Made by a program: the position numbers and the translations under genes. DNA of 58,706 nucleotides, counting the filler, from Dugesia japonica (taxonomy: Eukaryota): the NCBI GenBank assembly GCA_001938525.1. It is 5 parts of 5 records of this genome, joined end to end, with 100 filler letters (N's around TTAATTAATTAA, not from the genome) between each part and the next. Parts side by side here need not be neighbours in the genome. Positions count along the whole stretch, not along the records: positions 30,342 to 47,931 come from MQRL01629462.1; positions 48,032 to 58,706 come from MQRL01499040.1; 3 more parts are not named here. One strand, given 5' to 3'. Each line of letters opens with the position of its first letter. Positions within the stretch are counted from its first letter, which is position 1. The notes under the pieces are model-generated. The model ran no database searches. It had not been told where the DNA came from and saw only the letters and a list, made by a program, of their open reading frames with translations. This document shows positions 1,728 through 48,119 of the stretch, piece by piece.

Positions 1728-2099
1728 TCTTTAATCTTTAATCTCTCTTTAATCTCCATAAACGGTATTTAGTATTACAAGTGTATTTGATTAAAATAAA
1801 AATATTAAGAATAATTCATAGTATTCAAACAAATAATCTGAGAAATTTTTCAATAAAATAATAAATAATAAGTATTTTACTTTACATAAAAACTTATAAA
1901 ATATTTAAAAAATATTAACTTCCATTAAATAAATTTTATGTAATATAAGAATTTCATAAATATTTTACCTAATAATTTCAATAAATAAATTGTTTGAAAT
2001 ATTTCATTTTACTTATGTTTTAAAAATAAATTTTAATATTATATATATATTTAAAAATTAAAGAAAGATTTCTCAGATATTTAAATCTATGAATAATTC

Positions 2100-2510: not shown

Positions 2511-2559
2511 TATTGTTTAAATGGGTATAAATACCACTTTGAAAAAGAATTATTCATAA

Positions 2560-3022: not shown

Positions 3023-3072
3023 ATTAAGTCATTGTAAGCATTATACACTTTTCAAAATTGTATGATGTATTT

Positions 3073-3803: not shown

Positions 3804-4699
3804 ATTAAATAAAATTTACTGTTTTAAACCTGTTTTTATTTATAAAAGTAATAAAATTAACAAAGTAGAAATAAATAAGATAAGACGTTTATTTATACTA
3901 ATATTTATTCAATAAATTTTCATTCAATGTTTTGAGTTGATTTAACTTTCCATATTGGCTTTACTGTTTCTTCCAATTTCTTGTATCCAATTATTTCCAC
4001 TGTAATCTTTGATTTACTTTCTTGAACATTATTTTCTTTAGATTTATAAAGTTTGTTGATTTTAGGTTAATATATTTGTATTTAGTGAAAAATTACCAGC
4101 CGAATAGTATAAATTTCGATAAATTTTGATGTACTTTTGATATTTTCGAAAAATGTCACCGAATTCCGGGAGGGTGGCTGTAAATATTCGTTAGGAAGCA
4201 TTTTTTCCGAGTCAATATTTTAACTTCGCGCAGTCACGTTTTCCTTCTGAGTAAAATAATACCAAATTTGAGTCAATAGCTGTAATCTGGACACAGAGTT
4301 CTGAGCACTAAACTCTGAATTTTGAAATTTTTTCACTACCAAACCTCATTTATTTCATCAAGTATTAGTTTTGGTGATTTTAGGTTAACATATTTAAAAT
4401 CAGTGAAAAGTTCTCTATCGAATAGACAGGTTCTTGACCTATTTTGAGAAGAAAATATTTTTTCGAAAAAATCCTGTGCAAAATACTGGGAAAACCAAAA
4501 ATTATCGCCGTAAAATTCTGAGTCGATATATCTAAAAATAACTATATGTTATAAAAAATTGAAAAATTATTTTTAAAATTTTTGATTCTCCGGATTCCCA
4601 TAAAAAATTGATTTAAAACTTTTTTTAAATTTTCATATTATTTAAGCAACATGAACGGTTTGTCGGATTCCTATAAAAAATTCCCATAAAAATGTTTTT

Positions 4700-6129: not shown

Positions 6130-7393
6130 CAGGTAGGACCCAAACAATATATAATAGCTCCAATCTCTTTCTCTTCAAAATTTCTGCTTTCATCCTGTTT
6201 CATATCGACATAACCATATGCTAGATTGTCTAATTTATTTTCTTCATGAATACACTGAACCTTTCTTGTGTTATGTCGTAATAAGCTGCAATTATTAAAA
6301 AAAATGATTGTCCATACCACATATCAAATAACACTTATTCAAAGGACAGTTTTTTCTGGTATGACTGGACTCACCACAACAATAACATTCTCCTGGTTGA
6401 AGTCGTCATAATTCGGGTTCGGGTAACCCTTTCGCTCTATTATATACTCTTTTTGCTATATGCTTCATGGAAACCATAGGTCTTTGGGGCTTATCGTATT
6501 CATTCGACCTCTTCATAGGTTGTCTTCTCTCTGAATCTTGCAGTTCTCTATTTAAGTTGGAATACTACCTCCCTTGATTATTTACCGATTGTTTGATTAC
6601 CTGTGGTACATTGTGTCTAATTGACCTTATAATACCTGTTACTGCTGCGTATTTTGGCTTAAATTCTCTTTTGCTATCTTCAATTACAATAATTTCTGAC
6701 TTTTCTTCAATACTTATTGAATTTTCAAAATTTGTCGTCAATTTCTCAACTTCTTCCAAGGACATATCTGGGTTCATTGCTATTGACTCCTTTACTTTCT
6801 TGGAGGACATTCGTTTTGAAATTATATCCTTCACGATCATGTCTTTTGTTTACTTCACCGACAAATCTTTTCTTACCAACTTCCTCACTCTTATAGCAAA
6901 ATTTTCAAACCTTTCATTTGATCGTTGATTAACTTGGCTAAAATCGTTGATCTTTTGCAAAAATGTTTTCGACTTGATGTAATTTGAACTGCACCAATTT
7001 TTTGTATCTTCAACTGACAGAATTTTTATTTTTTCTTTGAAGGCTATCCATAATTTCTTCGCGTCACCGAGCACCAATAGATCAAATTCTGCACATAAAT
7101 TTAAAGAACTTGTGGTTACAAAATCTTCAATTGATTGTAGCCACTCTTTCCCATCTTCTTCCTTGTAGCCAAAAAACTTTTTTATTATTGGATAAATTGA
7201 TTCTTGAATATTTTTTGGCAACAATTCTAAAATTTCCATCCGCTGCTGCTCTTTGTGAGAACTGTGATTTCGGCGTATTCGCAAGTTACAATACCAGCTT
7301 AACTCATTAAACTAAAATACAAATACGCTTTTCAAAATTTATTACAAAACACTTTTTTGAATATTTAAACAACAATATTATCTTATTGTTACT
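6130..7393 (-). mobile_element. Ty3/gypsy LTR retrotransposon remnant: short 5' LTR (about 7283-7393) and decayed gag
   Basis: Gag ORFs 6850-7284 and 6565-6840 are similar to the gag at 41.3-42.4 kb (FDLLV/L..ERFENFAIRVR vs ERFATFEIRLR); frameshifted double CCHC knuckle at about 6280-6390; AGTTAC..GTTACT ends. Confidence 0.75.
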
Positions 7394-9294: not shown

Positions 9295-10404
9295 TTAGCA
9301 ATTTTAATGAAAAATGACTCTTATAGGAGTATTTTATTAAAAATCACAAAGACAGAATGTTATGTAAGAGTTTAGTCACTGTTCCCTTATCCTTGAAAGA
9401 AACAAGATTATTTCCTGTAGACAGATTATTAAAAATTTGAAGGCCGATTTTGAACTCATTGCGCTAAAATCTTACATGAAAACCAAATTTCTTCTTTAGA
9501 TAAGTTATTGATATCTAAACTTTTGACCAACAGCTTTTCGAAATTGTGCGGGTGACATGCGTCTAAAGCCAGTTGAGCGCCTCATCAATTGAGCATAGCT
9601 TTGGATGATTAAGCTGTTTGGATGCAGCATGAATTAGATCATTTTTAGCTATATCCCTAACTATTACATCTCGACAAACAAGCATTTTGAATTCCTGAAT
9701 GATTGATTGTATAATATACTCATCTCTAGCTTCATTTAACCCAACTGCTTCATGTTTTTTGGAGCTGTATAGGTATTCAAAAGCAGCGTTCAGTAGGATA
9801 GATAGAATTTATCTAACCTGTTCCCTGGTATATCTATCAATCCCTTTAGGTCTAAGCACCACTCCATTTGCAGTGTAGGCCGAAGCATCAAACTTACTGA
9901 CTGGAATGTTGAAGTTCCTAAAGGCAAAAGTAAACCTCGAATGAATGAAGCCTTTATATGCATGGATTTTCTGCCAAGGATAGAGAATAGATTTAGTGAT
10001 CTTCTCCACATATCTGACATATTTTTCAAGCATGTCTGATGGAGTCTGAAACTGACCCCGTCCGAAATCAACCCCAAGATAACGATAAAAATCCTTATTT
10101 AAGAGTTGAGGAATGCTTTCATCTCTGATTTCAATCTGCACAAGTGAACTATTTTCCGGACAAGGAAGATAAACACACTTATTCGGACGAAACTCTAAGG
10201 AATACCAGTCAGCCAAGCGAACGGCAACGTTAATCATGTCCTGAAATGAGGCTTTTGAAGAAGCGACCAACGCAAGATCATCCACATAAGCTAAGGCAGA
10301 GATGGGATGACGAGCACAATTAACTCGCCTTCCACGAGTCGTTGAGATTTCCTTAATGACTGGGTCAATGCCAATGTTAAAAAAAACACTGACAATGAGC
10401 AACC
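9295..10404 (-). mobile_element. Non-LTR retrotransposon reverse transcriptase fragment (R2/NeSL-like RLE group)
   Basis: FNIGIDPVI..ALAYVDDLAL..FRPNKC..YRYLGV..LYPWQKI motifs in ORF 9809-10411. Confidence 0.85.
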
Positions 10405-11054
10405 TTAGCAATTTTAATGAAAAATGACTCTTATAGGAGTATTTTATTAAAAATCACAAAGACAGAATGTTATGTAAGAGTTTAGTCACTGTTCCCTTAT
10501 CCTTGAAAGAAACAAGATTATTTCCTGTAGACAGATTATTAAAAATTTGAAGGCCGATTTTGAACTCATTGCGCTAAAATCTTACATGAAAACCAAATTT
10601 CTTCTTTAGATAAGTTATTGATATCTAAACTTTTGACCAACAGCTTTTCGAAATTGTGCGGGTGACATGCGTCTAAAGCCAGTTGAGCGCCTCATCAATT
10701 GAGCATAGCTTTGGATGATTAAGCTGTTTGGATGCAGCATGAATTAGATCATTTTTAGCTATATCCCTAACTATTACATCTCGACAAACAAGCATTTTGA
10801 ATTCCTGAATGATTGATTGTATAATATACTCATCTCTAGCTTCATTTAACCCAACTGCTTCATGTTTTTTGGAGCTGTATAGGTATTCAAAAGCAGCGTT
10901 CAGTAGGATAGATAGAATTTATCTAACCTGTTCCCTGGTATATCTATCAATCCCTTTAGGTCTAAGCACCACTCCATTTGCAGTGTAGGCCGAAGCATCA
11001 AACTTACTGACTGGAATGTTGAAGTTCCTAAAGGCAAAAGTAAACCTCGAATGA
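10405..11054. repeat. Apparently identical direct duplicate of 9295-9944, ending at a scaffold gap
   Basis: Same sequence at an offset of 1110 bp. Confidence 0.9.
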
Positions 11055-11519: not shown

Positions 11520-13560
11520 CGATGAAATTTAAAGAATTGAGTAACAAAGATCTATTGTATTGAATATCTCAAGAAGCCAACATGTTCCTGAAGAAGACTA
11601 TTGTCGAAAATTTGAACTTTTTTACAAATAAATGTTATTTTGATCGAAGCTGTTTCTTATTTTAACGAAATCCTATTCTATTAGTTTTATTTCATATAGT
11701 TACATTTATAAAAGAATATCCAATTACCTTTATCGCTGAGCCATTTGCACATGTTAATGTCTTGTTTGATCGAAGCATCTTGACGTTTTCTTTTTCTCGG
11801 ATCATTTGAAATAGTTTGAAATTCATGATGCTGGACTCTGCTCCAGAATCTATAAAAAGTTTCTCTTCTTCTTTTTCTACTTTGCCTTTGATTATTGGTT
11901 TGTTTGCATCGGGTTTGCTTCTTGTATCTGATATCTTTGTCCTTTGTGAATTGGAAATTTGTGTCTTGAACCTCGAATATATTCATCCAACTGAATAATA
12001 TCGTCTGGGTAGTTGATATTTCTTTTTTTGCCTTTTGTCTTTTAGTTTTCCTTTCTTTCGAAACATTTTTGAAAAATTCATTATTATCTTCAAATTCCTT
12101 TTCATAATCACAACTGGCTTCATCATATTTAGTAATAGAATTGTCATTTGTTTTTGCTAGTCTTCAANNNNNNNNNNNNNNNNNNNNNNNNNNNNNNNNN
12201 NNNNNNNNNNNNNNNNNTAATAATATCGTCTGGGTAGTTGATATTTCTTTTTGTTTCCTTTTGTCTTTTAGTTTTCCTTTCTTTCGAAACATTTTTGAAA
12301 AATTCATTATTATCTTCAGATTCCTTTTCATAATCACAACTGGCTTCATCATATTTAGTAATAGAATTGTCATTTGTTTTTGCTAGTCTTCAAAAAGCTN
12401 TTTTCTGAATATTAGATCTTTTTGCTGCTTGACAAAATCGAGATATATGTCCGGATTTGTTACAGTTCCTGCATAGCAATGGTTTGTTACAATTTCGACC
12501 AATATGACCTTTCCTGTTACAATTCTAACATTTTAATTCTTGTTAGAATATTTGAACTGCATACTTTGGAGAAGTTCTTCTAAGATGCTGCATCGTAATT
12601 TTTCTGGTCAGCAACTCGTTGAGTCCAGTTGAAACCAACAGTGTGNNNNNNNNNNNNNNNNNNNNNNNNNNNNNNNNNNNNNNNNNNNNNNNNNNTTTCA
12701 TAATCACAACTGGCTTCATCATATTTAGTAATAGAATTGTCATTTGTTTTTGCTAGTCTTCAAAAAGCTATTTTCTGAATATTAGATCTTTTTGCTGCTT
12801 GACAAAATCGAGATATATGTCCGGATTTGTTACAGTTCCTGNATAGCAATAGTTTGTTACAATTTCGACCAATATGACCTTTCCCGTTACAATTCTAACA
12901 TTTTAATTCTTGTTAGAATATTTGAACTGCATACTTTGGAGAATCTGTTTCATGGTTTCTTTCCAAATACTTTATACGATTTTCAAGCTAAATAATTTTT
13001 CGTTTTAATTTTTCAATTTCTTGCCATTTTTTGTATTAACATGATTGCTAATAATTCGCAATTTATCAATATGTCGAGTTTTATCTTCCTTTTTCATAAA
13101 ATTGAAAGCTTCTTCCAGAGTGTTTGGTTTCATAATTTCCATGGCTCTGGCTGCAAAACGATGATTAATCCCTTTCAAAAATATTGATAAGAGAGTCTTT
13201 TCTCTATCAAATTCATAATAATCTTACATTTCGCGAATACCAGCAACTCTGATAGCAGTTACATACTGTCTAAGAGTAATATCTTCCTGCTTCAAGGATA
13301 AAATATTAACTATTGAAGTTACCTTGGTTGACTTGATTTGATATAATTCAAATAACTTTGTCTTCACCCATTTATAATTCGATTTATTAGATTAAAACTC
13401 TGGAATTGATTGGAGTTCAAAAAATGCTTCTTCTTCTAAACTTTTCAATAACTTCTCATGAAAAGTTCTTCTAAGATGCTGCATCGTAATTTTTCTGGTC
13501 AGCAACTCGTTGAGTCCAGTTGAAACCAACAGTGTGTTTGCCGAAAAAACTTTGAATTAA
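11520..13560 (-). mobile_element. Ty3/gypsy gag-protease remnant, locally duplicated around gaps
   Basis: C*NCNRKGHIGRNCNKPLLCRNCNKSGHISRFC double zinc knuckle (two copies, about 12430-12530 and 12800-12900); aspartic protease FIDSGAESSIM at about 11825-11855. Confidence 0.8.
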
Positions 13561-23250: not shown

Positions 23251-23687
23251 TTTAATTATTTATCCTTAATGATCTATTCTTAATAAAAGATTTATTAATT
23301 ATTTTTATTTATTATAACAAATTTAACTTTACCTATTTCAAGAAAATAAATCTTATTAAATGATTTTCTAACAAATAGTTTTGCTAAAAATAATTTTTAC
23401 TAAACAAATAATATCAATTGATTTATCAAAATGCATGCTGGAGAAGTCAAATTAACATCACAAACCTATTTATTTCCGATTGGCTAGATTTGTTGTTTGT
23501 TATCAATCAAATTTATGAATTAGGTTTCAGTATTACATTGTAAGTTAAACAGTTTTTTAATAATTAACAATTTTTTATTTTTAATATTTTTTATATGTAA
23601 ATTAATTTTTAATGGATATTAATAATTATTAAGCAAAAATTTTTGTAATAAATTATCATTATATAAAATTTAGGAAATATTCAAACA

Positions 23688-24617
23688 ATGAGTGGGTTTT
23701 TATGTACAACTGCGTGTGCTCCTACTTTTCTCCCTGTAAATGATAATGACGAATTGGATCTTAATGTAATTCCTTGTTATTTTGAATATTTATACAAAAG
23801 TGGAATTCGATCTCTATTTATTAACGGTGGATGTGGAGAGTTTAGTAGCATAACAATAATTGAAAGAAAAAAAATTTTAGAAAAATGGATTGAAATCGTC
23901 ACTGGTGATATCGAGATTATTGTTAATATTGGAACAACAAACCTCGCTGATACAATTGAATTAGGAAATCATGCATTATCATTAAATAAAATATATGGTT
24001 TAGGAATTGTACCTCCATTTTACATGTCTATCAATGACGAAAATATGTTAATTAACTACCTAATGACCGTTGCACATTCTTTACATAAAAGAGTTCCAAT
24101 ATTATATTATCATATTCCATCAAATTCAAAAGTTGAAATAAATTTTGAAAAGTTTTTAGATTTAATAAAAATTTATGATTTTAGTCAATTATCGGCAATT
24201 AAATTCACGGACTCTAATTCTGAAATGTTCCATCAACTTTCTAATGGAATTCAATCAAAATCGATTGGGATGAACATTTATTGTGGTTATGAACCTTTAT
24301 TAGAAGAAATGATTAAATCTGGTGCCAAAGGTGCAATTTTAGGATTTGTAAATATCAATCCAAAACTTATTAATTCTGTAATAAATGGAATAAAGGATGA
24401 AATCACAAAATCTAATTTAGATAACTTAATAAAATTATTTCATGCCATTCAGGATTATTCACGAATCAATCGTGTAAATCTAATAGGACTTCTAAAAATT
24501 ACTACTGAATTTTATTCACAAATAAAATTGGGACCGATGAAAAAACCTTATAATATTAACAACGACCAAGTAAAAGAATTCAAAAAATTATTAAAAACAT
24601 ACAATCTTTTCAAATGA
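23688..24617 (+). CDS. N-acetylneuraminate lyase-like / DHDPS-family class I aldolase, single coding exon
   Basis: Intact 309-aa ORF with GxxGE (NGGCGEF), PPFY, YYHIP (as in animal NPL) and Schiff-base Lys in IKFTD. Confidence 0.85.
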   Translation: MSGFLCTTACAPTFLPVNDNDELDLNVIPCYFEYLYKSGIRSLFINGGCGEFSSITIIERKKILEKWIEIVTGDIEIIVNIGTTNLADTIELGNHALSLNKIYGLGIVPPFYMSINDENMLINYLMTVAHSLHKRVPILYYHIPSNSKVEINFEKFLDLIKIYDFSQLSAIKFTDSNSEMFHQLSNGIQSKSIGMNIYCGYEPLLEEMIKSGAKGAILGFVNINPKLINSVINGIKDEITKSNLDNLIKLFHAIQDYSRINRVNLIGLLKITTEFYSQIKLGPMKKPYNINNDQVKEFKKLLKTYNLFK

Positions 24618-27558: not shown

Positions 27559-29890
27559 CAGTGGCGGATTTCCGCACAGGCGCAGGAGACTAGCGCCTTG
27601 GGACACGCAAGTCATGGGGCCCCTAAACTACAGTAAAAAATTCATTAATTTGGAAATTATATAGGACTTAATAAATATTACCACAATTAGAATTTGAACA
27701 TGTCTTAAGGATTTTTGAGGGCCCAAGAATTAATTAATTAATTATCTTGCAGTGTCAAGTACGCTATTAAATTGGTTTGGTTATAATTATATAGATTTGA
27801 TCCCCAAAAAGTGCAAAATTAAATCAATTATTACATTATTAATTTTATATTAAAATAAACGTTCGTTTTTCGATGGAATTATTTTTATTTGAATATTTCT
27901 TCACTCGGGAGGATTGTNTTGTTTCTGAAAATAAGATCTAATAATTTTTGTAATGAGAGACAAAAGTTTAATTTTGTTTTTATATATAATTTTCATAAGT
28001 ATCAATATATAAAAATAAGAATATAAGTGAAACGTGTCTCTCCAGGTATTATCTTTATTTATTTAAGAAATCAATAAAAATAATTTACAAACCGTTTTGA
28101 CTGTGTTTCAGAATGTGTCGTTAAAATTTAGATATTAAATATTTAATGCAAAATATTTTATTTGTCATTTTTCATTTGAGTTGAGTTTCTTGAACGTACA
28201 ACATCGGTGAAAATAATTATATGTGCTTATAAAATACAACATACATACATAATTTATTATAAATTAATTCAAGGTAAGTACTACTGCTATNNNNNNNNNN
28301 NNNNNNNNNNNAAAAAAATTATCAAAAGAAAAGCACAAGAATTAATATTACGCAATCAAAAAATGCAATTAAAGCATTTCTAACAACAGACAGTAAAACA
28401 AATATTGATTTGGCAACAAAAGAAAATGAAGAGCCTGGAAAGAAAGTCCTTACCAGGATGGAATAGAAACAGGAGAAAATGTAAACAAGAAAGAAAAAGG
28501 ACCAAACCATAGTTAGAAAATAGAGAGCGGAAATGATTTCCCCAAAGATATTGCTCTATAGCCATTAATAATATTAGAAAAAAGGATCAGCTATTATTAT
28601 TAATAATTATTATTTCCTATTAATATTTACTTAACAAATAGTGTAATATCGGGGATATAACGAATTTAAAAATTGAATATCATCAAAATGATAGAAGCTA
28701 TTTGAGAAATATTTGACAAATAATAAGTTTTATTGTCCTAAAGCAAGCGGCAGGAAAGAATTTTGCGTGTGGGTAATTTTTCGCAAACAAGTAAATGTGT
28801 TTACTGTTATGTTTGTAAACTTTGTATTCGTTCTAATAATAAATTAATAACTGGCTATAATGACTGGGAAAATATTTAATCGTACATTAAAAGAACATGA
28901 ATGTTCTAAAGACCATTTTCTTCAATGTAAACGTTTCCAAAAAGATTATCAATAACTGGACGCATTGATTCCTTATTAGTTCAACAAATTGAAACCGAAC
29001 AAAAATATTAGTGAGAAGTTTTAAATAGAATTGTGGCAACAATGAAATTATTAGCTAGTTTGGGTATGGCATTTCGAGGACGCATAGAAGGTGTTGACTC
29101 ACATAGAACAGGAAATTTTATAGCATGTATAGAATATTTGGCTCAGTTTGACGATTTTCTTAAAAACCACTTAGAGAGATATTGCAATATTAGAAGTGGC
29201 AGAGTTAACTATTTATCTCACACGACATGTTGTGAATTTATTAATTTAATGGGAACTTATGTAAAAGAAAAATTAATTTCCGAGATTCAGAAAGCTTTAT
29301 ACTATTCGATAGTTGTTGATTCTACGACAGAGGTAAGCAATATCGATCAATTAACATTTATATTAAGATACGTTAGCAAAGAAGAATATGCAAAGGAACG
29401 ATTTTTGGCTTTTTGGAAATTAAAAGTCACGAATCCAAATATTTGGAAGAAATTACCAAAATGTTAAATAACTTGTCTTTAGATCTAAACAATTGCCGTG
29501 AGCAAAGTTACGACAATGCAGCTAAGATGGCTGGCAAGTATGATGGTTTATAAGCTAGAATAAAGAATTTAAATCAATCTGCCACGTTTTTTCCATATTC
29601 AAATCACTCTCTAAATTTAATTGGAAATTGTGCTGCGGAGGCTTGTTCGGCAGCTGCTTATTATTTCGATTTAATTCAAAACATTTATGTATTTTTGTCT
29701 TCGTCTACGTATATATTTACCTTTAGATAGTTTAGCGATAATAATTCAAAACTTATAAGAAGACTTAATGACACTAGATTGTCAGCAAGAGCTTATGCAA
29801 TTTATGCTTTACGCTTTATTTTTAAAGATATTAAAACAGTTCTTTATAGTATTAGCGAAAATATTAACGAAAAACCGATCACTAAGTAGG
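27559..29890 (+). mobile_element. hAT transposon (ZMYM/DUF4371-type transposase), decayed and 3'-truncated
   Basis: CAGTGGCGGATTT left TIR; LAFRG-like MAFRG, GNF, YSIVVDSTTEVSNIDQLTFILRYV..ERFL, QSYDNAA, HSLNL motifs. Confidence 0.9.
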
Positions 29891-33398: not shown

Positions 33399-34026
33399 AT
33401 TTATCAAACAAGACATTTTACATCAAGAGATAAGACAGATCTTTGTTATTCACTTAGTTACTTAAGATTAAATAGTAACCAAATTATTAAAAAATAGTTT
33501 TATTAGGTAATTATTTTTTCAATATTTCAAACTTGTAAATTTGGTGCCATTGTCTAATGTACATATCGGCAATCTAGAATTCACCGAATAATTTGATTGC
33601 ACATCATATTCGCACTGAATTAATTTAGGATGACATCTCGTAGAAAAGCTTTTAGTTTATTACTGGTAAAAAAGACTGGCACATTAACATTACAACCACA
33701 ATGATAACATAAAAGTAGACTGACAGATATACTCAAGATCAGTTTCAGTGCGTACTATGACGTTTATTTATTAAAAAATTGTTTTATGCTAGTATATAAC
33801 TAAATAATCTAAATCCAAAAGTTGACCATCAATATATTAAAGTATGACCCACGATAAAAATCTGGTCAACTCCTGATCAGATACGTTTTCAAAAATAATA
33901 ATAATATCTATTTTCTAGATAAGTAATGAAACATGATTTTACATGATTTTTTAAATAAATATTTATTTATAATTTTTTTTAAAAAAAAACGTTTATAAAT
34001 ATCAATTTGTTCGTTTCAGTTGCGAA

Positions 34027-37000
34027 ATGTCAACACAGAAATCTCCATCATCAATTAATGGACATCAAGTATTGTCTCCAACTGTAGACAATCCAAAATC
34101 TCCTACTCCATGTCATGGAACAGGTATTCTACCAATAAATACTACCATTGGTAAACAAATCAGCAAATTAAAAAGATTCCTATCAACTCTTTTATCATTT
34201 GGAAGTGACATTGATATTACCACTGGTGAAATTGTGAAAAATCTTGTTTTTTCATTGCTTGTAAGTTATTTTTATAACTGATTCAATAACACGAGATCGA
34301 AATCGTTAACATGCTTTAATTCGACATTACTTTCACTATGGTAGATTTCAAAGAATCTATAGTGTTGTGAGAATGCTTATTAACTTCTTTCTCAACAGCT
34401 CTTTCTATGTAGTAATCCATTGGATTAAGATCGGGGGAGTTGCTTTTCAAAATTAAATATTTTTAATTTTAGTTAATTATTCTTGATAAACATAAACATC
34501 AAACGATCAATGTTACAATACCGATTGCACAAAAAGGATTTTCAGTGTGTGATTTTCCATTTTCTAATAAAATTAGCTAATTGTTACTCATTTTCATAAA
34601 ATTTAATGCAATTTCTACAGATAAAACAGTTAAAGATAGTTTTTTTAAATATTAAAATATTTATTTTAAGATAATTTCATAAGGACGATTAATCATTTAT
34701 TATAAACAGTGGCGTAGCAAGAGTATATGCTGTCAGGGGCAGAACCTAAAATTTGACGTCCCTCTCACAACATCAGGAAGAATTATCTAATTTGGTGCAT
34801 TTTTTTATTGCTTGGAAAAAATTGAGAGGAGTATTTTTAAATAATTATGAAAACGGTATCGGAATAAAATTATTTGGGTAATTTATCCCGCTTTTTTGAT
34901 TAATAGAAACAAAAGTTCTGCGCCAAAAGTTGCGGTCCGCTTTCCCTACCTTTCCTACGATACTGATTATAAACACTTATGATTTCATATTTTATTACAA
35001 TATTTTTGACCAATTTTAATTATTTTATTTTATTTAAAAATATATTTAGTGTAATAAAATATCAATTGATCAATTTCAATCAAAGTTACAACATGCTACT
35101 CATTTTCCTTTAAAAGCATTTGTAACACCATTTCTTAAAGCAACATTACCATTACTTCAACAAGAAATAATTCTTTGTTCTCAATTGGTTCATCAAACTC
35201 CAGAAAACTTTTTGTTGCACAACAAAGAATATTTAGCACCTGCTGATTCAAATAAATCGGAAAACATTTTAGAAAATGCAAAAAATTTTTGTCTTGAAAT
35301 GATGATAAACAAAGAAATAAAAGATTCAGAACTACCCAAATCTCCAGATAACGATCATGCTATCAATACTACCGCAAAATCATTTTTCAATAATAAAAAT
35401 TCATTGAAAAGAACTCTTTCGATAAAATTAGAGTAAATTTTTCATTTTTACAATTAATATTATTACAGTCGAACCTCTTTAATGTCACCATTTGTATAAT
35501 ACCGCCCTTCTTATAAACAAAAAAATATATAATTACAAACTTTTACAATTATAATTCATCTCTGTGATGTCTCATTCTTAGCAGTCACATTTTCTATATA
35601 TAATATATGAATATTTGGTTAATATAACTCTAGATAGTCGCATTAGCTTGTGATATAAGACTAAAATTTAAAGAAAATTTGAGAATAAGTTGAAATGTGA
35701 TAAATATATCTCTCTGTTAAAATATGATTTCTTTTAATTTCCAAAACATTAGGTGTAACAAATTTAATGAGTTGTGGATCAATATATATATATAAATTAA
35801 AACCATGAAAAGTAGTTTGTTTGGTGAAATCATTTTCACTCCTAAGATGAATCATTTTCTCTCATGAATTAGCTGCGGTGTTAGTTTTTTCTGCAACTTT
35901 TTAAACTCTTTTTCTTGTCAATCCCAATTTTTTGATCGTTCTACATGCTGTAGATCTGCTGAACATCTTTCTTTGTTACACTTGTTCGAATCTTCCTTGT
36001 TCTTATTTTTGCATTAGGCACGTTTTCACATCATAAAGAGATTTAAAATAAATTAATCTTTATAAATTAATATTATAGTTACTGTTAGATGAGTTTGTAG
36101 TATTCATCAGATCATTAATGTCAAAACACATTTCCATAAAAGATTTATTCACAAAACAAAAACTATGCATAAGAATTTACTTTTTTCAAACAAATATAAA
36201 AATATCAAATATCAGTATTTTGTAAAATATTTAATTTAAAATTTTATATATTTTCTTTTATTTTATTTTAATTAAATTTTTATTGAGGTCAAATTTAAAA
36301 ATACAGTAAAAAAACACATTTCCTTGACAATATTTTATACTCTATTTTATTCAAAATTTTAATAATGTGAAATATTAAAAATACATTTAAAAATATATAT
36401 TTTATTGACAAACAGAAATTTAAACATTTTAAGAAATTATAACAAAATTACAAAAATTTAAATACACATTTATTTATTTTATAAATAATGAAAATGATAA
36501 TTTATTTATTTTATAAATTATTTTGATGATACAAATTTAAATATTTAACAAATCTGATTTCAATAAATTCCACTTTAAAATACAAATAATTCAAATCTAC
36601 TTTTAAAAACTATCTTAAAGTTACAATTATCCATTTGATTTTTAAAAAATCTTTAAATGTATAGTAAAATCTTTTTTTAGCTACACTTGGTATATATTCT
36701 TAATTTATATGTTTTAACATTTCATATATAAATATTATTGAAATTTGTATATATATTTTTGAAATTTTTATTTAGATTAATGCGCAACTATATATAAATC
36801 GTAAGAATAAACCAAAATAAATATAATTTAATTTTATTTCAACAAAATGTCTCCGGTTCCACAAACGTGTAAAAAGCTATAATTTTATGACACATTGGAA
36901 ATTATTAAAAACTGCACTAATGAGAAGAAATCTCAACCATCTGTTTATTAAACGTTTTGAAATTGAAAGAAAGATCCTGAAAAACAATGCTATTTACTGG

Positions 37001-38095: not shown

Positions 38096-38309
38096 GTAAG
38101 AATAATTTGTAAACCTATCGAAAAATACAAATAATTTAATATTTTAAAGTTCCAAATCAATTACAGATGTCAAATTTAAACTATTTTCATACTCAGAGCA
38201 GAAATTAAAAGTTAATTTTTAATTTTAAATCTCCAATTTTTAGTTAAGATTTACTTCTCAGAATTTTTATCTGTATTTTTCGTTTGATTCTTGATGTTAT
38301 TCAGTTCTT

Positions 38310-39644
38310 TTAAAGTCATATCACTGGCACTTTACTCACAAAACATGCTTTATATTTACCATGATAATCTTCTTGAAAATTTTCTATTATTTTAGCATCA
38401 TTTACTTTTAAATTATAGGGCTACGTTTCATTTTAATTCCAAAATTTTCATAAAAAAACTTCTTACACATATGTACGTGGGAAGCCATAGAATACGAGGA
38501 TGTTGGCTTGAGATTTAATGTATATTTCAAATTTCCCTGTTAGGGTAATTGACTCTGATTAATATCAAACTATGGAGCAAGCATAAAGGTGGAAAATGGA
38601 TATTTGGTCTTAAACTCATCAAGTGTTATTCCACAAATCATATTCTTGTTTCAATATCCTATATATTTAACTATTAATTGCATATATTATGTACTTTAAT
38701 CATCATTTCTAAAGTCTTGGATATAGATCTTTATGTATACTCCGTTTTTTGATAGAGTTATTGATTTAACATTGAAATTATCGAAAAGTGAGCTTTGCAT
38801 TAACAGTTTTCTTTATATCGTTCTCTATCTTGAAATTCAACTAAAATAAAGCTTGGTTATCTTCGATTTCCAAAGATTTGCCCCTTATAAAATGGTGAAC
38901 TGTCTTTATTAATTGCATATAAACAATTTCTTTGGTTCATATAAGATAAATAGGATTAATTAATAAGATTAATTGGTTAATCTAATTTGGTGAGTTGTTA
39001 GTACTGATAAATCTACTAAAACTCTTATAATCATTAATTTTGCATCCAATAATGTATATTTTGATTCATAAATTTTTATTCCATACACAGTCTGGAGTTC
39101 GCTCTTTTCAATCGAATGTAAGCATTGACATCTAGAATAAGATATTTCGGTTGGTCCATGAAGTCTAGTTGAAGAGGACCACATAGAGACGATGATTTTG
39201 ATGATTTAGTGGTTGTTTCTCTAAATTCATCATTTCCATAACTCATTGCATTAAGACATACATNTATTGTATCTCTATTATAATTCAAAATAGTTTCAAT
39301 TAGTGCTTTAGGTATATATTTTCATTTCCACCTTCAACTTTAATATTATGTAATTGAAGAATCACATCTTTAAATAGAGTATGCAACATGAAATTTGCAG
39401 GCACAACATCAGACCTTTATTCCAAATGCTTTCCATTTTTATCAACTACCTTTACATGAACATACAAGAGAGTATCATTCAAATCCAAATATTTAGTTTG
39501 CGATCTATTTATTTAAAATTCTACATCATTTGAACTTTCAGAAATATTATTCTTTGGAAACACATATTTAAATACTCTATTTTTAATAACACCTTTAGGT
39601 TATAGACTTCCGAAAATACAAAATTCATTTTTTCCGCAAGTCAT
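38310..39644 (-). pseudogene. Polinton/Maverick major capsid protein (double jelly-roll), decayed
   Basis: MTCGKNEFCIFG..DVEF..KYLDLNDTLLYVHVKVV..ANFMLHTLFKDVIL..GPLQLDFMDQPKYLILDVNAYIRLKR matches Maverick MCP consensus blocks. Confidence 0.8.
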
Positions 39645-40016
39645 TAGTCAAATATGGTTTTGCATCTTTTCAATAGTTTGTTTATACCCTGCTAAACAGA
39701 ATTCTTACATTTTATTCCACTAACTTTAAGGTTGACTTCGTCCTTTGATTTTGACATCATTTTTGAAAGTTCACCCAATACATAAAGTTGTTGAATTGAT
39801 GTATTGCATTTGTTTTGAGTGATGGTAAATTTTTGCTTTATAATTTATTACACCCTGTACTGTTTTCATTCTAATTGCTCAAATTTGTCTAAGAATTGGC
39901 AAAGCAAATTAACCCAATGTTTGCAACCTTCCTGATCAATCCTGTTTTCCTATAAAGAATGATTATTCTCCAGCTTGTCCGATGCCATATAATGCTATTA
40001 TATCGGGATTAGACAT
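39644..40016 (-). pseudogene. Small Gly-rich core-like ORF between the minor and major capsid genes
   Basis: MSNPDIIALYGIGQAG..GRLQTLG*FALPILR; start abuts the penton stop and its stop overlaps the MCP ATG. Confidence 0.5.
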
Positions 40017-40082
40017 TTATTTTTCTAAAATTTAATGTTAAATAAGTTTTATCGTCTTGAGCAAAGTTGATTAAATCTCGAC

Positions 40083-42499
40083 AGTTAAGTTACTTTCCAA
40101 ATCAGACTTTATTTAAATATTTATTATAAATCAAAATTACACAATTTCTGATAATATTAAAACGAAGTGTTAATCATTGTAACTCTCCCTTTCTTCAAAA
40201 TGCTTTCCACTTCTTTAGCCATTCTATTCTTCTGTACTTTGAACGATGAGCAAATTTGATTTCTACTTGCCGATTGGATATGAACTTCATTATCTGATAT
40301 GGTCCTTAATATTGGAAATCATTCTTCTTTCTTTTGTGTGGTTCTACACGAACTAATATCCATTCCCCCACTTTGAAAATTCTCTGTCCACGCTTTTCAT
40401 TTTCAAAAATTGCCATTTTATTAGCTGCTTCATTTAAATTTTGTCTAACTGTCTCTAGACTATCTGTTTTGTTTTCAAAAATGGCATCCGTATTTGCATA
40501 CAACTTTACTCGCCTTCTTTTTTTCAGTGATCATATTCAGTTGTCGATAATCAACACACATTCTTATCAAACCATCTTTTTATCCAACAATTACGAAAGG
40601 TGAATTCCACGGACTTTTACATTTGCTAACTATCTCAATACTTATTAAGTTCCATATAATTTCGTCAATTTTCTTTTCCAAGTGCATTGGTTGTCTCCGG
40701 GGATATTGAACCATTGGATCTCCAAATCCTTTATTTCGTGTTTTGTTTGTTCTTGTTTTGTATGTTCTATATCAAACTTAGACTCCATGAATATTTCACC
40801 AAACTTCGAAATTAGATCATTTGGATCTTTGTTATTGGTTTCTTTAAGACATTTATGCGTAAGTCTTTCTATCATCGTTTGAGTGGTTTCTTCCCAAACA
40901 TTTAGTTTAAATGATATTAATTTCTGTCAGTTTTATTCTAAAACTTTTCATTGCATCTATCCCACCAATAAATTTTGGTCGTTTCTCTTTAACTATTATG
41001 ATTTTAATAACTCTCATTTTTTTATTCCATTTAACGCTCAGTTCTACACATCCTAACGGCTTCTCTCCACTGCTCGAAAATACCCAATTTAAAATGACAT
41101 TGCAACATAACAAAGATGGTTTTCCTACCTTTAACCAGTACTCTTTGCTCATATCTGTAATCGATGCTCCCGAATCCCACAACATTTCCAATTTTATTCC
41201 ATTCACGGCTCCTCTGCTCCACTTCCGTCTTCTTTTTCATACATCTCTCGTCTGTCTTCATTATTTCGATTTGAGTTATCCCTTCTTAAACTAACTCCAC
41301 TGACTAAATGTATACAACGGAGTTGTTGTGGCTTTTTTTGACATTATATTATGCATTTCAAAGCTTTCATCTTCGTCAGTTTGTACCTCTTGTTCCTCTT
41401 GGATGCATAGAATTTTAGTATTTCCGCTATTAAATCGACCTTGCACAAGAAAGCATTTCCGGAAATTGTGTCCTGCTTTCCCGCATATCAAACATTTATC
41501 TTTTAATTGACATTGATAACGCATATGTCCATGTTCTCCGCAACAATAATATTGTTCTTTTCGTAATCTTTCTTCTTGTGGTTCAGGTAATCCTCTGCAT
41601 CTGTTAAAATGACATCTTGAAATCTGTTTCATCGAAACTATTGGTTTTCTACTTAAATTCTGTGTTCTGTTCTCTGTAATCACCGGTTGTGACATCCTCT
41701 CATTGTATTTTCTCTGATACGTTGACATTTTTGTGCTTGGATTTTTATATCTTAAATTACGATTGGTTATAAAATTAATTGACGGCTGGTTTTGAACTCG
41801 TCTCTCATGACTACTTCGGTCTCCTTTTTACCCATTTGAATAACTCTTTCTCTGTATTGCGTAAATATCCTCATTTCCAGAGATCTCATCTCAGCAACTT
41901 TCATTTCTGGTCTTGTTGTAAGCGTCTCTCGCAAATTTTAATTCTGACTTTCTTTGTCAGAAAATTATTTACAATTTCGTCATTACATAACCCTGAATTC
42001 AATACACAGTTAACTTAATTTCTTAATCGTATCTCGAACGTTGCAAATCTCTCTTCTGATTCTTGTTTAAGGGTTGCAAGCTCCCTTATAATTTCCGTGA
42101 TAGATTTCTTTATTGTAAAAGTGTCTACAAACCACTTTTTTGCATCTTCTTTCGTAATTCTGTCCCATAAAACTCCGGCTTCCTCTGATAACAAGAGATC
42201 GAAAATTCCCACCAAACTTAAATCATTCACAATGCGCTATTCGTCTATTTTTTCAGCCATGATGTAGCTTTTTAAGTATCCTTGCCATCATATTTTTTTA
42301 TATTAAAATTGATCAGCTTCTGAGTCTTATTAGGCAAGGCTTCTAAAATTAATTTTCGTTGTTGGCGTGTAAATACATTAACATTTTTGGCGTGGTTGCC
42401 AGTTAAGTTACTTTCCAAATCAGACTTCCTTTAAATATTTATTAATCAAAATTACACAATTTCTGATAATATTAAAACAAAGTGTTAATCATTGTAACT
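40083..42499 (-). mobile_element. Internally deleted Ty3/gypsy LTR retrotransposon with about 100-bp LTRs (40083-40184, 42401-42499)
   Basis: LTRs end AGTTA..TAACT; PBS TGGCAACCACG overlaps the 5' LTR by 1 nt; PPT GAAGAAAGGGAG; gag with two CCHC knuckles, protease LWDSGAS, RT start fused to the integrase C-terminal GPY region. Confidence 0.9.
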
Positions 42500-43369
42500 T
42501 CCCTAAAGTCTCTTATATTGATTTCTATATTGTTTATACAATTAGTTGATGCATGAAATTTTTGACTATTTGTTAATTATCTTCATAACTCTCCAACCAT
42601 ACTGATTTCAACAAAGAAACATTTGCATCACTAACAATTATAGGTTCAACAATATTACTATAGATGAACATTTGATGAGAGTTGGTGATTATTTTCGGGT
42701 TCCTAACACCTTGGTCGGGATAAGGTATATTTATATTACTTTGAATATATTTGTTTATCTAATCCCAATGTTTTTATCAGGATTCTGTCAAAGGTGAATA
42801 TTTTAACATGTGTTTGCAGAAAAAAACTAAATACTTTATTTTTCTTTAAATTAAATGATTTAAATATATTTCTAAAACCATGTTTTATGTATTCATATAA
42901 TTCTTGCAAATTTGTAATGTATAAATCATCAGAAAACTATACTTTATTTTAATATGTACTGTTTCTCTTGTAAAGTAATCTTTAAAGTCTAGAAAAGGAA
43001 TAATACCCCCACTTTTCATACCGTTGTGTAAACTAATGAATCAAATTCTATTTACATCTTCTAAAGCTTTAAATTCGATATCATAATCATGATATTTTCC
43101 TATTACTAAAAAGGTCACCCCATTAATTACATCAATATCATAGTTTTCAATGCAAATCACATGATTTATTAGCTAAAACATTTATTAAAAGCAATTCTAG
43201 GCAGTAAGAACTAGAATATATATCAGATTTCATTTCAGTCAATAGTAATATTGCCTTTGAAGGATTTTTGTCTAAACTGGCTGCTAAGAATGGTATACTA
43301 ATGTTTTCAATATTTAAACTTGAATTCACGCGCAATAGTTTGAAGTTTCATAATCTTCAATTACCTAAG

Positions 43370-43720
43370 CAGCCATCAGACGTTATGAAATCGATTCATA
43401 AAATATAATGAAATCATTGAACAACAAAATTTATCAAAAATTGTCTGTATGATATCTGAGAAAAAAATTTAGTTTATCCATAGATGAATGGTATAGTTTT
43501 AAAAATCGGCGATATGTGAACATTTAAATTTATTTTTGTAATGTAACCTCGAGTTAATTAAGATGAAAGTTTTTATCCACAGAGAGTGAATACGAATTAG
43601 TAAATATAAAACTTCTATCATTCGAAATTAGTTTTAAAAAAGATATTGTCTCCGTAATAAGCGATGGGCCCTGCATATCACCAACTTTGCTACAATCATA
43701 CTATTCATTACATATGTAAC
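43370..43720 (+). mobile_element. hAT transposase fragment inside the penton gene
   Basis: KFSLSIDEWYSFKNRRYVNI..DIVSVISDG. Confidence 0.65.
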
Positions 43721-44477
43721 ATGTTAAAATACTGTTAAATATTTTTAAGATTTTTATATTTTTTTCATGTCCCCTTTTACAATTTAATTTTATACTACTT
43801 TTCATATTTTTATTTTATATTCTATAGTATTTCTACATATATATTTTTTATGTCTTTCAAAAGTTATTAGCCCATAATATATTATAGTAGTTTTGTTTCT
43901 TTTGATTTTTATTCTTTCGTTTTATGTTGTAAAGAAATCAATTCAATATATTGAAAAATATATCTATACTCGAGATTATCGAAAATTCTAGAGAATTACA
44001 TACATTGTTTCAATTACAGATTTGTTTGAATTCTATACCATTACATTACCTTCTCCGACATTTACAGTCACACGGAGCAAATCCATCGAGGTCCATTAGC
44101 ATCCAATTGAATCCGTTCATAATTGAACTTATCGATCAGCTTGTGTAATTTTAACTAAACTAAGCTCGAGAAATCACAACCTCTAATCAACAGCAATATC
44201 AGTACCAAAACATCTTCTATTTTTATTTTCAACAAAAACAATAATATCCCTCGTTTCTGTTTTTCAAGTTTTAATTTGAATCGTTGCATCTCTATAGATT
44301 GGAAATGTATTATTTATAAAAGCAAAGTCCATCAAAGCTACTTTCCAACTACCATTCAAGTAAATGGGGTTATCAAGTTCAACTATAAATTTACTGGCTT
44401 TATTATCCGGATGAATACGTGTACAAATACTACTAAGTAAAATTGTATAGCAATTATTCGTATTGATCATTTGTTAA

Positions 44478-45210
44478 CTAATTAGGACGCAGATATCCAA
44501 GTAGATTTTTCGTAACCATGACATTTTACATATATTTATATTAACCAGCTCCCTTTGACTTTATAATCTTTTCTATTCTAAATAATGATGCTTGCGGAAT
44601 AACTTGTAATTCTTGTTCAAAAAACCTTCCAACAATAATATTTTCTTCAGGATCTTTAATCACATACAGAACTTGGTTCTTCTTGGTATTGATTTTCGAT
44701 ATTTGAAACACTTCATTATTCCAATGATTATTTAAATTTTTGATGAATGGAGATTCTTACATGATCGCCAACGTTTTATTTAGGTTTTGTAATTGCTTTA
44801 GGTTTTTGTTTCAATAACCATAACTTCATTGAATTTTTAGATGATGCATCAACTGGTCTTGCTCCATTTAATATTTTGTATGATTATAACTGTCGATTAT
44901 TTTCGGTAATACATGAATCCAGATTTAGTTACCAGTTTGTACAAAGTACGTTTTCATAGCAACTCTCAATGTTCGATTAAATCTTTCAACATATGCTGCG
45001 TTGTATTGTGAAAATACAGAATAGTGGTTAATTTTAAGATAAATAATAATATACTTGACTTTTGAATTATAAAATTCTTTTCCTAAATCAGTTTGTAAAT
45101 TATCTGGATGATCATCTTTAAACATTGTTTTGATTGCAGCTTCCATTTCATTAGACGACATGTACTAAATACGTCGATAAATGTTAAAATATACTTGTAA
45201 CTTTTTTTGG
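44478..45210 (-). pseudogene. Retroviral-like (rve) integrase with C-terminal chromodomain, Polinton/Maverick type
   Basis: YKYILTFIDVFS, LQTDLGKEFYN, AAYVERFNRTL (DDE), then WNNEVFQI..GRFFEQELQ..FRIEKII. Confidence 0.88.
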
Positions 45211-45214
45211 TTCT

Positions 45215-45814
45215 TGAATATGGGAGTATTTCCACCAAATCCATCATCAATCCCATATGTTTTTTACGGTCTTTTTGAGAATCTTTTCAATATTGGTTTG
45301 TTCAGACTGTATTCTAACTGGTTCGATAACCACTTTATCTTGGTTAAGATTTACAATTCCTTGAATAACATTTACAACATTCTCTAATAAATCATTAGTA
45401 ACAAACTTTGGAAATTACTGTAGCATCTTTATTGTACACTCTTGTGGAGCCTTAAATAATAATTTTTAATGAAAAGACTTTGTTGAAGTGCCATAATATT
45501 TATTAATTAACACATGCTTAGATTGTTTATAGCTTAAACCATTTACCAGTTGGTGGAATCTTTTAATTCTTCTTTGGTTTTTTCTTGCTAATATTCTTTG
45601 TTTGCTCCTTCCTTTTTTCTTGTTTGCAAACTTTTATTGCTTCCTTGATTGCCTCTTTATCGATTTATTTATTTATTGTTCTCTTTATCAACTTCTTTAT
45701 CAAATTGATATCATTGGTGAGAGTATAATCCTTATAATCAGTTTGATCAGTCATGTGCTTGTTAATCTGTTTAATTGTATGAGGATCTACTAAAACTTTA
45801 GAAAATTTAGACAT
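45215..45814 (-). pseudogene. Two small Maverick-type ORFs between ATPase and integrase (45527-45814; 45215-45494)
   Basis: MSKFSKVLVDP..KIPPTGKWFKL* and ..LFKAPQECTIKML..DLLENVVNVIQGIVNL; tandem, closely packed, with stops. Confidence 0.45.
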
Positions 45815-45837
45815 ATGTAAAAAATATCAACTTTTTT

Positions 45838-46080
45838 TTATAGTATATAAACTGTAACACCATTTGGATTGAAAATATTAGTTCGAGTTCTAAGATCATC
45901 GAGACATTGTTATGTAAAATCCAGAAAAGTATCCATTAGAAATTGCTGTTGCATCTTTAAATGAATCCAATAGAAATTGTCGATTAATTAAACACGATTG
46001 TCTTGCTAGAAAATCAACAACAGTTTGATCTATTGGATTTTTAAATATCATCGAATATTGAACATTTAAATTAAGTGAAA
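45838..46080 (-). pseudogene. Packaging ATPase C-terminal part
   Basis: LNLNVQYSMIFKNPIDQTVVDFLARQ..FLLDSFKDAT..NGY..DDLRTRTNIF; overlaps and continues the copy-1 ATPase motif NLNVQYLVIF. Confidence 0.85.
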
Positions 46081-46119
46081 CCAAGCATTGTAAAATTTTC
46101 AAAAATAAGATTATGTTAT

Positions 46120-46845
46120 CTTTTTAGAAAAAAAGAAGGAATTATTGAAAGAAATAGAACTTAATTAAACAAGATGTTGGAATTAAAGACGATGATGAAT
46201 TCATAATATCTTTTTAATATGGCATGGAAGATTTATTATTCCAAAAATTATTTCAGAGACGTAAAGTCAAAAAATGTAAAATTGATGTTGCTGATAATTT
46301 AACTAATTTATTCAACCTCGAACCATATATTGGTCAATGGAGAAAATATCAAACACTGAATGTTCCTTTATCGACGTAAATTAAAATAAACATTACAATT
46401 TGGTCTACAAGCTCTTATTCAGATCAAATTTCTAGATAGTCTTGAGATTATCAGAAGATTAGAATATTTATATTAACTGAAATTTAATCCAGATTCGTTG
46501 GAAAAAATGACATTTTTAATGGATAATTTAGTTAAATTTCATAAATCTGATATTTTAACAGTTGAAAATGAGTTTCGTGTGAATGAAAAAGAACCATTAA
46601 TCAAAGATTACAATAATGTTTTAGGTTACTCAAACCCTGAATAGATAAATCAAGTTCAAATGAGTATTAAGCTAAAAGCATAAGCATTTGCATTAAGACC
46701 ACAACATGAATGCAAAATGGAAAGAGATCCAAACACTTTAAGTAATTTTGTTGCTTTAATAATCTGTTTTAATATTATAATTTTTAGTTACCAAATGTTA
46801 TACAGAACAATCATGGGAACAAAGAATAATATAAGATGGAATTTA
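46120..46845 (+). pseudogene. ORF-X second copy with a 46-nt intron (46742-46787)
   Basis: Nucleotide and peptide homology to 3073-3803. Confidence 0.6.
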
Positions 46846-46939
46846 ATGAACTTTACTGTTTTTTACATTTTTTGATTTATAAAATGTAATATAACAAAGA
46901 AAAAATTAATAAGATAAGTCGTTTTATTATACTAATATT

Positions 46940-47377
46940 TAATAAATAAATTTGTATTCATTCTTTTGAATTGATTTGATTTTCGATATTGTTTTTTAAT
47001 ATCTTCTAATTTCTTGTAACCAATAATTTAGGGTGTAAGCATTTATTTAGTTTCTTGAACATTATCTTCCTTTGATTTAATAAATGTTGCATCTTCAATT
47101 ATCATGGGCTCATTGGTTATAAGGAATAGCTTATTAAGAGTATTTTGGTCATGATCGCTGACTTCAGGTACGAATAAATCTTAAAGACAAGGCTTCACTG
47201 TTACAAGGTTCTTAAAAGTATTAATTAAGTAATTAGCAAATCAAATAGTACTTGAAAAGCATAATGAATTGATCTCCTAAAGAAAACCATCTCATATTTG
47301 TAGTGATTTGTTGGTTTTTCGCACTTAAATACTAGGGTAGATGCATTTTCCTTGGTAAGAGTTTCTATCATACTCAT
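46940..47377 (-). pseudogene. ORF-Y: orphan gene of the element
   Basis: MSMIETLTKENASTLVFKCEKPT..; 3' part homologous to 3910-4050; TATATAAA about 35 nt upstream of the ATG. Confidence 0.45.
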
Positions 47378-47547
47378 TTGAAATAATGATTAATGAATTA
47401 AAATATTTGTTTATATAGGTTTTTAAAATAGGTGTGTATAATTAAATGTTATNGAAACAGTAAATCAATTGATTCTAGAACATTCTAATTGAAATTAAAA
47501 TAATTAATTTAATTTAAATAAATTAATCTATTTATAATTAATATTTC

Positions 47548-47931
47548 ATGGACTTACCATTGTTAAAGTTATTTAAATTTTATGATTGTAATCGTTGTTC
47601 ACTTTTCAAATGTTACCCATAAAAGAATAATTTACTATTAAAAAAATGAATTATTATGGGAATTTTTGAAAGAACATCATTGGAATATTTTAGGTAAAGT
47701 ATTTTTAAATTATTATTAACAATGTTATTTTTAGATATTGTAAAGGAAATACTAGAAGATAAAATTCAAGAATTTAAAGAAAAATCAAAATTTTGGACAG
47801 AAGAAGAATATTGGAAGAATGTGAGTAATCTAACCAATTTGGATATAGAAGAAAATCTATTAAAGTTTTATAGTGAGATAAATAATAGATATGATTGTTA
47901 CTTTTGTTGTTATGATGTACTTAAAAGCATA
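47548..47931 (+). pseudogene. ORF-Z: Cys-cluster orphan gene with a 41-nt intron (47694-47734), runs into a gap
   Basis: MDLPLLKLFKFYDCNRCSLFKC..WEFLKEHHWNIL|DIVKEILEDK..YDCYFCCYD. Confidence 0.45.
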
Positions 47932-48119
47932 NNNNNNNNNNNNNNNNNNNNNNNNNNNNNNNNNNNNNNNNNNNNTTAATTAATTAANNNNNNNNNNNNN
48001 NNNNNNNNNNNNNNNNNNNNNNNNNNNNNNNTTTTTAAGAAAAGACTTGTAATAATCAATAAACAATTTATGGAGACTTTTGAGACTTTAAATTTAACTA
48101 ATACAGATCATAAATCTTT

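Follow-up and report, generated by a model that had tools for sequence, protein, structure and literature searches.

Two regions of the stretch of Dugesia japonica DNA analysed here (the window: 58,706 nucleotides, five records of assembly GCA_001938525.1 joined by filler) are almost certainly defunct copies, each with its own deletions, of a single repeated Polinton/Maverick family, judging from the genes that they share with related loci. The first of them retains a short gene resembling the TATA-binding protein (TBP), and related loci with such a gene carry a box, TATAAACA, shortly before the starts of open reading frames (ORFs). At about even odds, the short TBP is a putative late-gene switch that reads this class of box; the explanation as a whole, dead Polinton copies together with the switch, is given a probability of about 0.6. 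Polinton copies in decay are common, and it is routine to derive a gene order from a pair of such copies; the distinctive part is the TBP-like gene with its matching box, together apparently a little-described variant among otherwise ordinary remnants.

Copy 1 (1400-4060) retains the following:

1446-1727 (profile match 1509-1727), minus strand: remnant of an adenovirus-type cysteine protease (tblastn to residues 38-131 of the protease of related locus L016, E 2e-12)
2104-2499, minus strand: N-terminal part of the packaging ATPase, broken at 2104 (Pfam Pox_A32 above cut-off; profile positions 10-137, E 4e-39)
2567-3022, plus strand: short TBP-like ORF, stop-free and head-to-head with the ATPase (Pfam TBP, PF00352, at 2567-3019)
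3064-3712, plus strand: ORF-X, decayed (68-77% identical to P0162, an intact protein of 229 residues, in two frames)
3754-4055, minus strand: 3' part of the ORF-Y region (DNA and tblastx match to copy 2; no Pfam match)

The protease remnant matches Pfam Peptidase_C5 at E 0.0018, below the cut-off, the L016 protease itself being above it; the TBP-like ORF matches PF00352 at E 4.9e-8 (33.1 bits, cut-off 22.9). No family was found for ORF-X (Atlas matches under 0.9; predicted local distance difference test, pLDDT, 0.39), which had no match among the related loci. An earlier reading made from the sequence alone (the sequence-only reading) had claimed a protease, the N-terminal half of the ATPase and a TBP gene on the plus strand for copy 1, and Pfam and profiles uphold all three.

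Copy 2 (38500-48100) was mapped with profiles built from intact relatives, and with tblastn of the proteins of one such relative, locus L021; the profiles placed all of its genes, the best piece of each at E 4e-6 to 2e-47:

38498-39644 (profile 38507-39644), minus strand: major capsid protein (MCP) gene, decayed, in three frames (profile E 9e-21 to 4e-29)
39834-40010 (profile 39876-40010), minus strand: matched part of a small gene between penton and MCP (47.5% identical to an L021 ORF, E 5e-11)
40012-40077, minus strand: last codons of the penton gene (residues 325-346 of the intact relative P0163)
42508-43166 (profile 42508-42957), minus strand: middle part of the penton gene (P0163 residues 85-321, two frames)
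44189-44470 (profile 44243-44452, E 5e-15), minus strand: N-terminal part of the penton gene (P0163 residues 1-96, 61%)
44544-45335, minus strand: retrovirus-like integrase, decayed (39% identical to the L021 integrase, E 2e-54)
45340-45826, minus strand: small ORFs between ATPase and integrase (45340-45627 matches an ORF of L021 and L006; profile 45343-45567)
45847-46078 (profile 45847-46075), minus strand: C-terminal part of the packaging ATPase (tblastn and profile)
46161-46758, plus strand: ORF-X, decayed (match to P0162, E 4e-53)
46790-47415, minus strand: ORF-Y region (match to copy 1)
47698-47931, plus strand: ORF-Z, ending at an assembly gap, a candidate member of the element only

The MCP pieces are 33-53% identical to the L021 MCP, and the small gene at 39834-40010 is a putative 'core' gene. 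The L021 integrase scores above the Pfam rve cut-off; the window piece by itself reaches only E 0.04. The order MCP, core, penton, integrase and C-terminal ATPase, all on the minus strand, stands as the sequence-only reading had it; one of its two small ORFs is matched, that at 45668-45826 finding no match among the related loci, and ORF-Z has none in Pfam or among those loci. A protease start directly after the MCP was looked for in copy 2 and was not significant. The two copies leave the place of the protease unfixed; relatives put it after the MCP (L016, L012, L082, L034).

Matches to the MCP, penton, integrase, ATPase and protease bear out the claimed Polinton or adintovirus identity. MCP, penton and core had no match in Pfam, intact relatives included, so the first two were tested by way of those relatives. 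Sequence searches of the PDB with MCP and penton returned nothing real; profiles from the intact relatives do match. A model of the L021 MCP (pLDDT 76.8; best Foldseek E 6e-15) matches the MCPs of iridovirus, Paramecium bursaria chlorella virus 1 (PBCV-1), Sputnik and mavirus, a double jelly roll, and through this relative the copy-2 MCP is predicted to be a double jelly-roll capsid protein. The putative penton is called on homology and on its position one gene before the MCP, not on fold; that position is the usual place of PX (penton) in the accessible text of PMC4028283.

Related loci were sought with a 39-member TBP alignment against part of the metagenome contigs, which gave 421 confirmed stretches, the best 80 being kept. 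Polinton genes matching window pieces are carried by 11 of 84 loci and by 9 of the 25 best matches; among those 25, all six loci of 4.5 kb or more join the short TBP to Polinton genes. Together with divergent contigs linking ATPase, TBP and ORF-X, these long loci support the TBP as a gene of the family. The order in L021 (ATPase, small ORF, integrase, penton, core, MCP) is that of copy 2, and in L024 the short TBP shares its contig with DNA_pol_B_2 (Pfam E 2e-21). Scans of viral contigs yielded no confirmed relative when made with the TBP or ATPase of the window or with an ATPase alignment, and four weak loci, none with Polinton genes, when made with the TBP alignment.

The claim that two copies allow reconstruction of the viral genome map goes too far: the merged map is that of the virion/integrase part, since neither DNA polymerase B (PolB) nor terminal repeats were found. 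Both absences count against the explanation as a whole. Profiles from the relatives found no PolB in the window, both copies being truncated. Polintons are marked by terminal inverted repeats that have AG/AGT ends and by a 6-bp target duplication; around copy 2 there is no convincing inverted repeat (a score of 77 was also attained in 1 of 100 shuffles), and each copy has lost its ends or has them past assembly gaps. A window without PolB is assignable to neither the Alpha nor the Beta adintovirus class, which differ in OTU-PolB class and in accessory genes (PLA2X, GasderminX, Cupiennin). One candidate terminal repeat, a 72-bp inverted match (959-1030/48032-48103), was rejected as unproven, as it resembles DNA upstream of the protease match. 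The same sequence occupies three places (955-1128, 1721-1890 and 48032-48103, the third inverted and 96% like the first) and resembles the DNA immediately upstream of the protease match; these may be protease-region fragments or a small repeat.

Evidence that the family is repeated comes from a read comparison over 1400-4200 at 80% likeness in 30 bins, using one DNA run (X1) and two RNA runs (X21, X22). X1 returned 13,118 contig records, which fill all 30 bins and are mostly under 95% alike, with 1,484 at 99% or more; the records give no copy number, yet show that the family is repeated. From the ATPase break at 2104, 86 contigs and 116 X22 reads run on into letters like 46013-46042 (29 and 28 of 30 places, by eye), so the two ATPase halves are continuous in other copies. 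The divergent contigs that connect TBP with ORF-X and with the region where the ATPase starts span 2495-2859, 2749-3112 and 2843-3168. X22 holds 1,543 reads with a plus-strand bias that, if the library is standard stranded, is sense for TBP and ORF-X. On 2058-2527 the same bias is to the strand opposite the ATPase gene, and family copies may there be transcribed in antisense or by read-through. The intact relatives of TBP (P0001), ORF-X (P0162) and penton (P0163) are each found on a 6631-bp ENA contig, probably one and the same and an intact copy.

The copy-1 TBP-like ORF is 84% identical to P0001, a basic protein with a net charge of +12. It belongs to a wider family of short TBPs (about 150 residues), for which a limit of E 0.001 admits 269 representatives and one of 1e-10 admits 55; the 39 aligned members share 32-46% identity and near-invariant motifs. 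The model is confident (pLDDT 96.8), all 44 PDB matches under E 0.001 are TBPs, and the window ORF, which matches the PF00352 profile, is predicted to form the two-repeat saddle; viral structure matches are giant-virus TBPs, those to herpesviruses being weak (BcRF1 E 5e-3). In TBP the stirrups and certain Phe and Asn residues act at the DNA face, one stirrup lying on the TFIIB side. Compared with two-repeat TBP, the short form keeps the first Asn in 33 of 39 rows, and three of four Phe positions and the Glu pair of the second stirrup in 38-39 of 39; the full canonical set (both stirrups, four Phe, two Asn) is not present. Its place varies among the 11 loci: in five it precedes the ATPase in the same orientation, in four it comes after the protease, and two have it opposed. 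The head-to-head ATPase/TBP layout of copy 1, found in none of them, is specific to the window family. Short forms make up one branch of 15 rows (95/91), including one long-branch row and one match without context, in a tree that gives no donor, as it is unconverged, contains no named eukaryotic TBP and has an outgroup of 33 search matches picked for two matched stretches. No viral RNA polymerase gene was seen among the proteins scanned from short-TBP loci.

In the proposed switch the short TBP would be made early and bind TATAAACA before capsid, protease and packaging genes; once bound, it would recruit host TFIIB and RNA polymerase II (Pol II) to the virion genes. The box would on this proposal be a promoter, read by the viral TBP and not by a host factor, with early and late phases of expression. 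The main rival, unlikely yet the best of the alternatives, is that host TBP or a forkhead-type factor reads the box and that the short TBP is a decoy for TFIIB or for TBP regulators (NC2, Mot1, TAF1), biasing or stopping host transcription. Nine Polinton loci hold 33 matches to TATAAACA against 8.0 expected (fourfold), and 17 of the 33 sit 10-100 nt ahead of an ORF start, a zone that takes in 6.4% of positions. The distribution of those 17 argues against this rival: they fall in all seven short-TBP loci and in neither of the two longer-TBP loci (L082, L034). In L085-L087, three Polinton-like loci whose available stretches lack a short TBP, 1 of 8 boxes is near a start. Retention of three DNA-face Phe positions and the basic charge of P0001 likewise speak against it. 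Across 25 control loci TATAAACA occurs 28 times against 28.7 expected, once near a start. TATAAAC is present in 11 of 36 upstream regions of non-TBP genes versus 1 of 14 of TBP genes, and a poly(A) signal does not fit, as the box lies inside the upstream ORF in five of five chosen cases. Copy 2 itself has four such boxes:

39679-39686, minus strand: TATAAACA before the MCP, 42 nt before the start, the same offset as in L021
42531-42538, minus strand: TATAAACA before core, at about 100 nt without the long terminal repeat (LTR) element; within the middle part of the penton gene
45524-45531, minus strand: TATAAACA before the integrase, at about 40 nt from where alignment would put its start; within the small-ORF region
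47408-47415, minus strand: TATAAACA before ORF-Y, about 38 nt before its first ATG

It is worth setting out, however, what weighs against the switch. Firstly, as to the box: TATAAACA is a good ordinary TATA box with a forkhead-type site inside it; a fifth copy-2 match (38918, plus strand) lies inside the MCP in the opposite direction; there is no enrichment over the whole window (11 against 9.9 expected) and no match in copy 1; TATAAAC is missing within 80 nt in 25 of 36 non-TBP upstream regions; the control loci lacking the TBP are three incomplete contigs; and the counts overstate independence because some loci are related (L006/L021, L022/L024). Secondly, as to the protein: in 38 of 39 rows there is a gap at the first-stirrup Phe, and Ser stands in place of the second Asn; with these changes the short TBP, which has no first stirrup, may bind DNA differently or not at all. 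Thirdly, as to expression: X22 reads on the ATPase (2058-2527) are antisense-biased if the library is standard, just 14 of the 1,543 are 99% alike, and X21 (59 reads) has zero depth on the TBP. Certain points favour a decoy in particular, namely that residues of the TFIIB-side stirrup are the best conserved whilst a Phe position that kinks DNA and an Asn position have been lost; that the form CATAAACA, not a TATA box, is common in L022 and L024; and that the short TBP carries no additional domain comparable to the Pol II-binding N-terminus found in ORF24 of KSHV, the herpesvirus associated with Kaposi's sarcoma, as described in the accessible text of PMC7498053.

The two copies are related by DNA as well as by gene content. 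Positions 3018-4055 match 46065-47089 at 75.0% over 1064 columns including gaps (blastn), or 79.9% of aligned columns (score 1039, shuffle maximum 98). That the copies are no assembly duplicate is supported. The ATPase halves overlap at 2104-2138/46043-46077 (88.6% of 35; score 55, shuffle maximum 31) and are complementary, the intact L021 ATPase spanning both: residues 9-140 map to copy 1, whilst copy 2 takes residues 129-178. A 9-bp word common to 2126-2134, 3018-3026 and 46065-46073 marks the copy-2 junction and is present at both ends of the stretch missing from copy 2, which is therefore 892 bp long, in keeping with the deletion of about 1 kb previously supposed; microhomology-mediated joining would explain it. 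Separate insertions, as the sequence-only reading had concluded, are not proved by divergence alone, much of which can be decay, and are the simpler reading given the many other copies in the runs. The alternative of one old insertion, locally duplicated and then decayed, is improbable: the copies lie in the same orientation 43 kb apart and their mismatches fall on all codon positions (18/17/28), as neutral decay predicts, but the third-position excess, though mild, has p 0.04, similarity ends at 4055/47089 (beyond, score 49 against a shuffle mean of 49.5) and many other copies exist. An inverted match of 1721-2107 with 47376-47789 is marginal (score 122, shuffle maximum 116; left part reached by 3 of 500 shuffles). 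Least probable of all is a reading in which the TBP-like gene was captured and now rides along without a part in the element's cycle, the box being an ordinary strong promoter, for whilst its position and orientation vary among loci and many Polintons lack it (no short TBP in L085-L087; outside the eight core genes in the accessible text of PMC8097293), a coherent family with near-invariant motifs on one branch points to long selection on the short TBP.

The penton gene lies where it had been claimed to lie, with two inserts that were missed; because they interrupt it, about a third of the flagged interval (38300-48105) is not Polinton. Intact P0163 (346 residues) maps to three separated pieces, between which are:

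40082-42504, minus strand: nested Ty3/gypsy-type LTR element of 2.4 kb, LTRs at 40082-40190 and 42400-42504, 93.6% identical
43141-44189, strand not assigned: insert of 1.06 kb, a gap in the P0163 mapping, with 12-nt direct repeats (11 of 12 alike, spacing 1061)

The gag-asp protease and zf-CCHC Pfam matches of the LTR element are weak and below cut-off, and no target duplication was seen around it; a Pfam scan of the smaller insert gave no match of note, its 12-nt repeats resembling a target duplication.

The surrounding window is AT-rich (about 18-41% GC per kb) with many assembly gaps, and about 3 kb separates the end of copy 2 from a probable piece of host gene:

33973-35433, plus strand: two exon-like pieces of a TAFH (NHR1) domain (Pfam), from a host TAF4- or MTG-type gene

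Elsewhere, 23667-24614 (plus strand) is an uninterrupted ORF of 316 residues of the DHDPS/N-acetylneuraminate lyase family (Pfam E 4e-29), either an intronless host gene or a transferred one, and 55798-57012 (minus strand) a stop-free frame of 405 residues with no Pfam match and TATAAACA at 55796 on the opposite strand. A second Ty3/gypsy-type remnant, related to the nested LTR element (tblastx; 66% DNA identity), and a reverse transcriptase piece occupy 6298-7393 and 9812-10453. Duplicates 98-100% alike beside gaps (9295-9944/10405-11054 and 11994-12943) are probably assembly artefacts; 29015-29464 is a DUF4371 (transposase-associated) remnant, and 36083-36619/51947-52454 an inverted pair of another repeat (71%). 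Among the related elements, accessory genes include RING-finger and KilA-N genes (L021:1710-2168, L024:7145-8002), and small ORFs with a 'DFE/DME' start lie near the TBP (L012:1134-1658, L016:3360-3857, L024:6588-7049, L026:2078-3034, L027:1337-2353); by eye these resemble DEDD nucleases, the two scanned gave no Pfam match, and a profile search did not find them in the window.

Compared with Polintons/Mavericks and animal adintoviruses as described in the accessible text of PMC4028283, PMC8502044 and PMC8097293, the element has the same rve integrase (44544-45335), FtsK/A32-like packaging ATPase (Pox_A32 above cut-off, in complementary halves), adenovirus-type cysteine protease (copy 1 only) and predicted double jelly-roll MCP, the same gene in penton position one before the MCP, and the same degradation by stops, frameshifts and secondary insertions. 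It differs in adding a short TBP-like gene outside the core genes described there, and in that PolB, terminal repeats and target duplication were not found in this window. A 'TBP' label appears in the legend to Fig. 5 of Starrett et al. 2021 (PMC8502044) for a TBP-like gene in MELD viruses with adintovirus-like PolB; the label stands only in that legend, within a section that deals with non-animal datasets, and the accessible text holds no family, structure or promoter analysis of it. Beyond that label, the accessible literature on Polinton TBPs yielded nothing (one supplement has no TBP or TATA), with Repbase and subscription papers outside the search and prior annotation possible, nor did it yield a description of Polinton capsid-gene timing.

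With cellular TBP (PF00352) and its giant-virus homologues the short TBP shares the two-repeat saddle, the second stirrup and three Phe positions; it is about 27 residues shorter, without the first stirrup, and 20-26% identical to solved TBPs. As a minimal TBP that occurs in nature, it shows what the saddle can do without. A one-protein, one-box switch, if true, would make capsid-gene timing testable by binding assay and reporter. It is possible, at slightly less than even odds, that a widespread clade of animal Polintons with no RNA polymerase of their own makes its early-to-late switch with a one-stirrup, minimal 153-residue TBP and a YATAAACA box, independently of herpesviruses. The closest known parallel would then be the TBP mimics of beta- and gammaherpesviruses (KSHV ORF24, Epstein-Barr virus BcRF1, human cytomegalovirus UL87), in which, according to the accessible text of PMC7498053, a viral TBP-like protein and a virus-specific TATA-like box steer host Pol II to late genes, as is proposed here. 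Those mimics are large, work in a six-protein complex, bind Pol II directly and read TATT, whereas the short TBP has 153 residues, stands alone and is weakly like them in structure.

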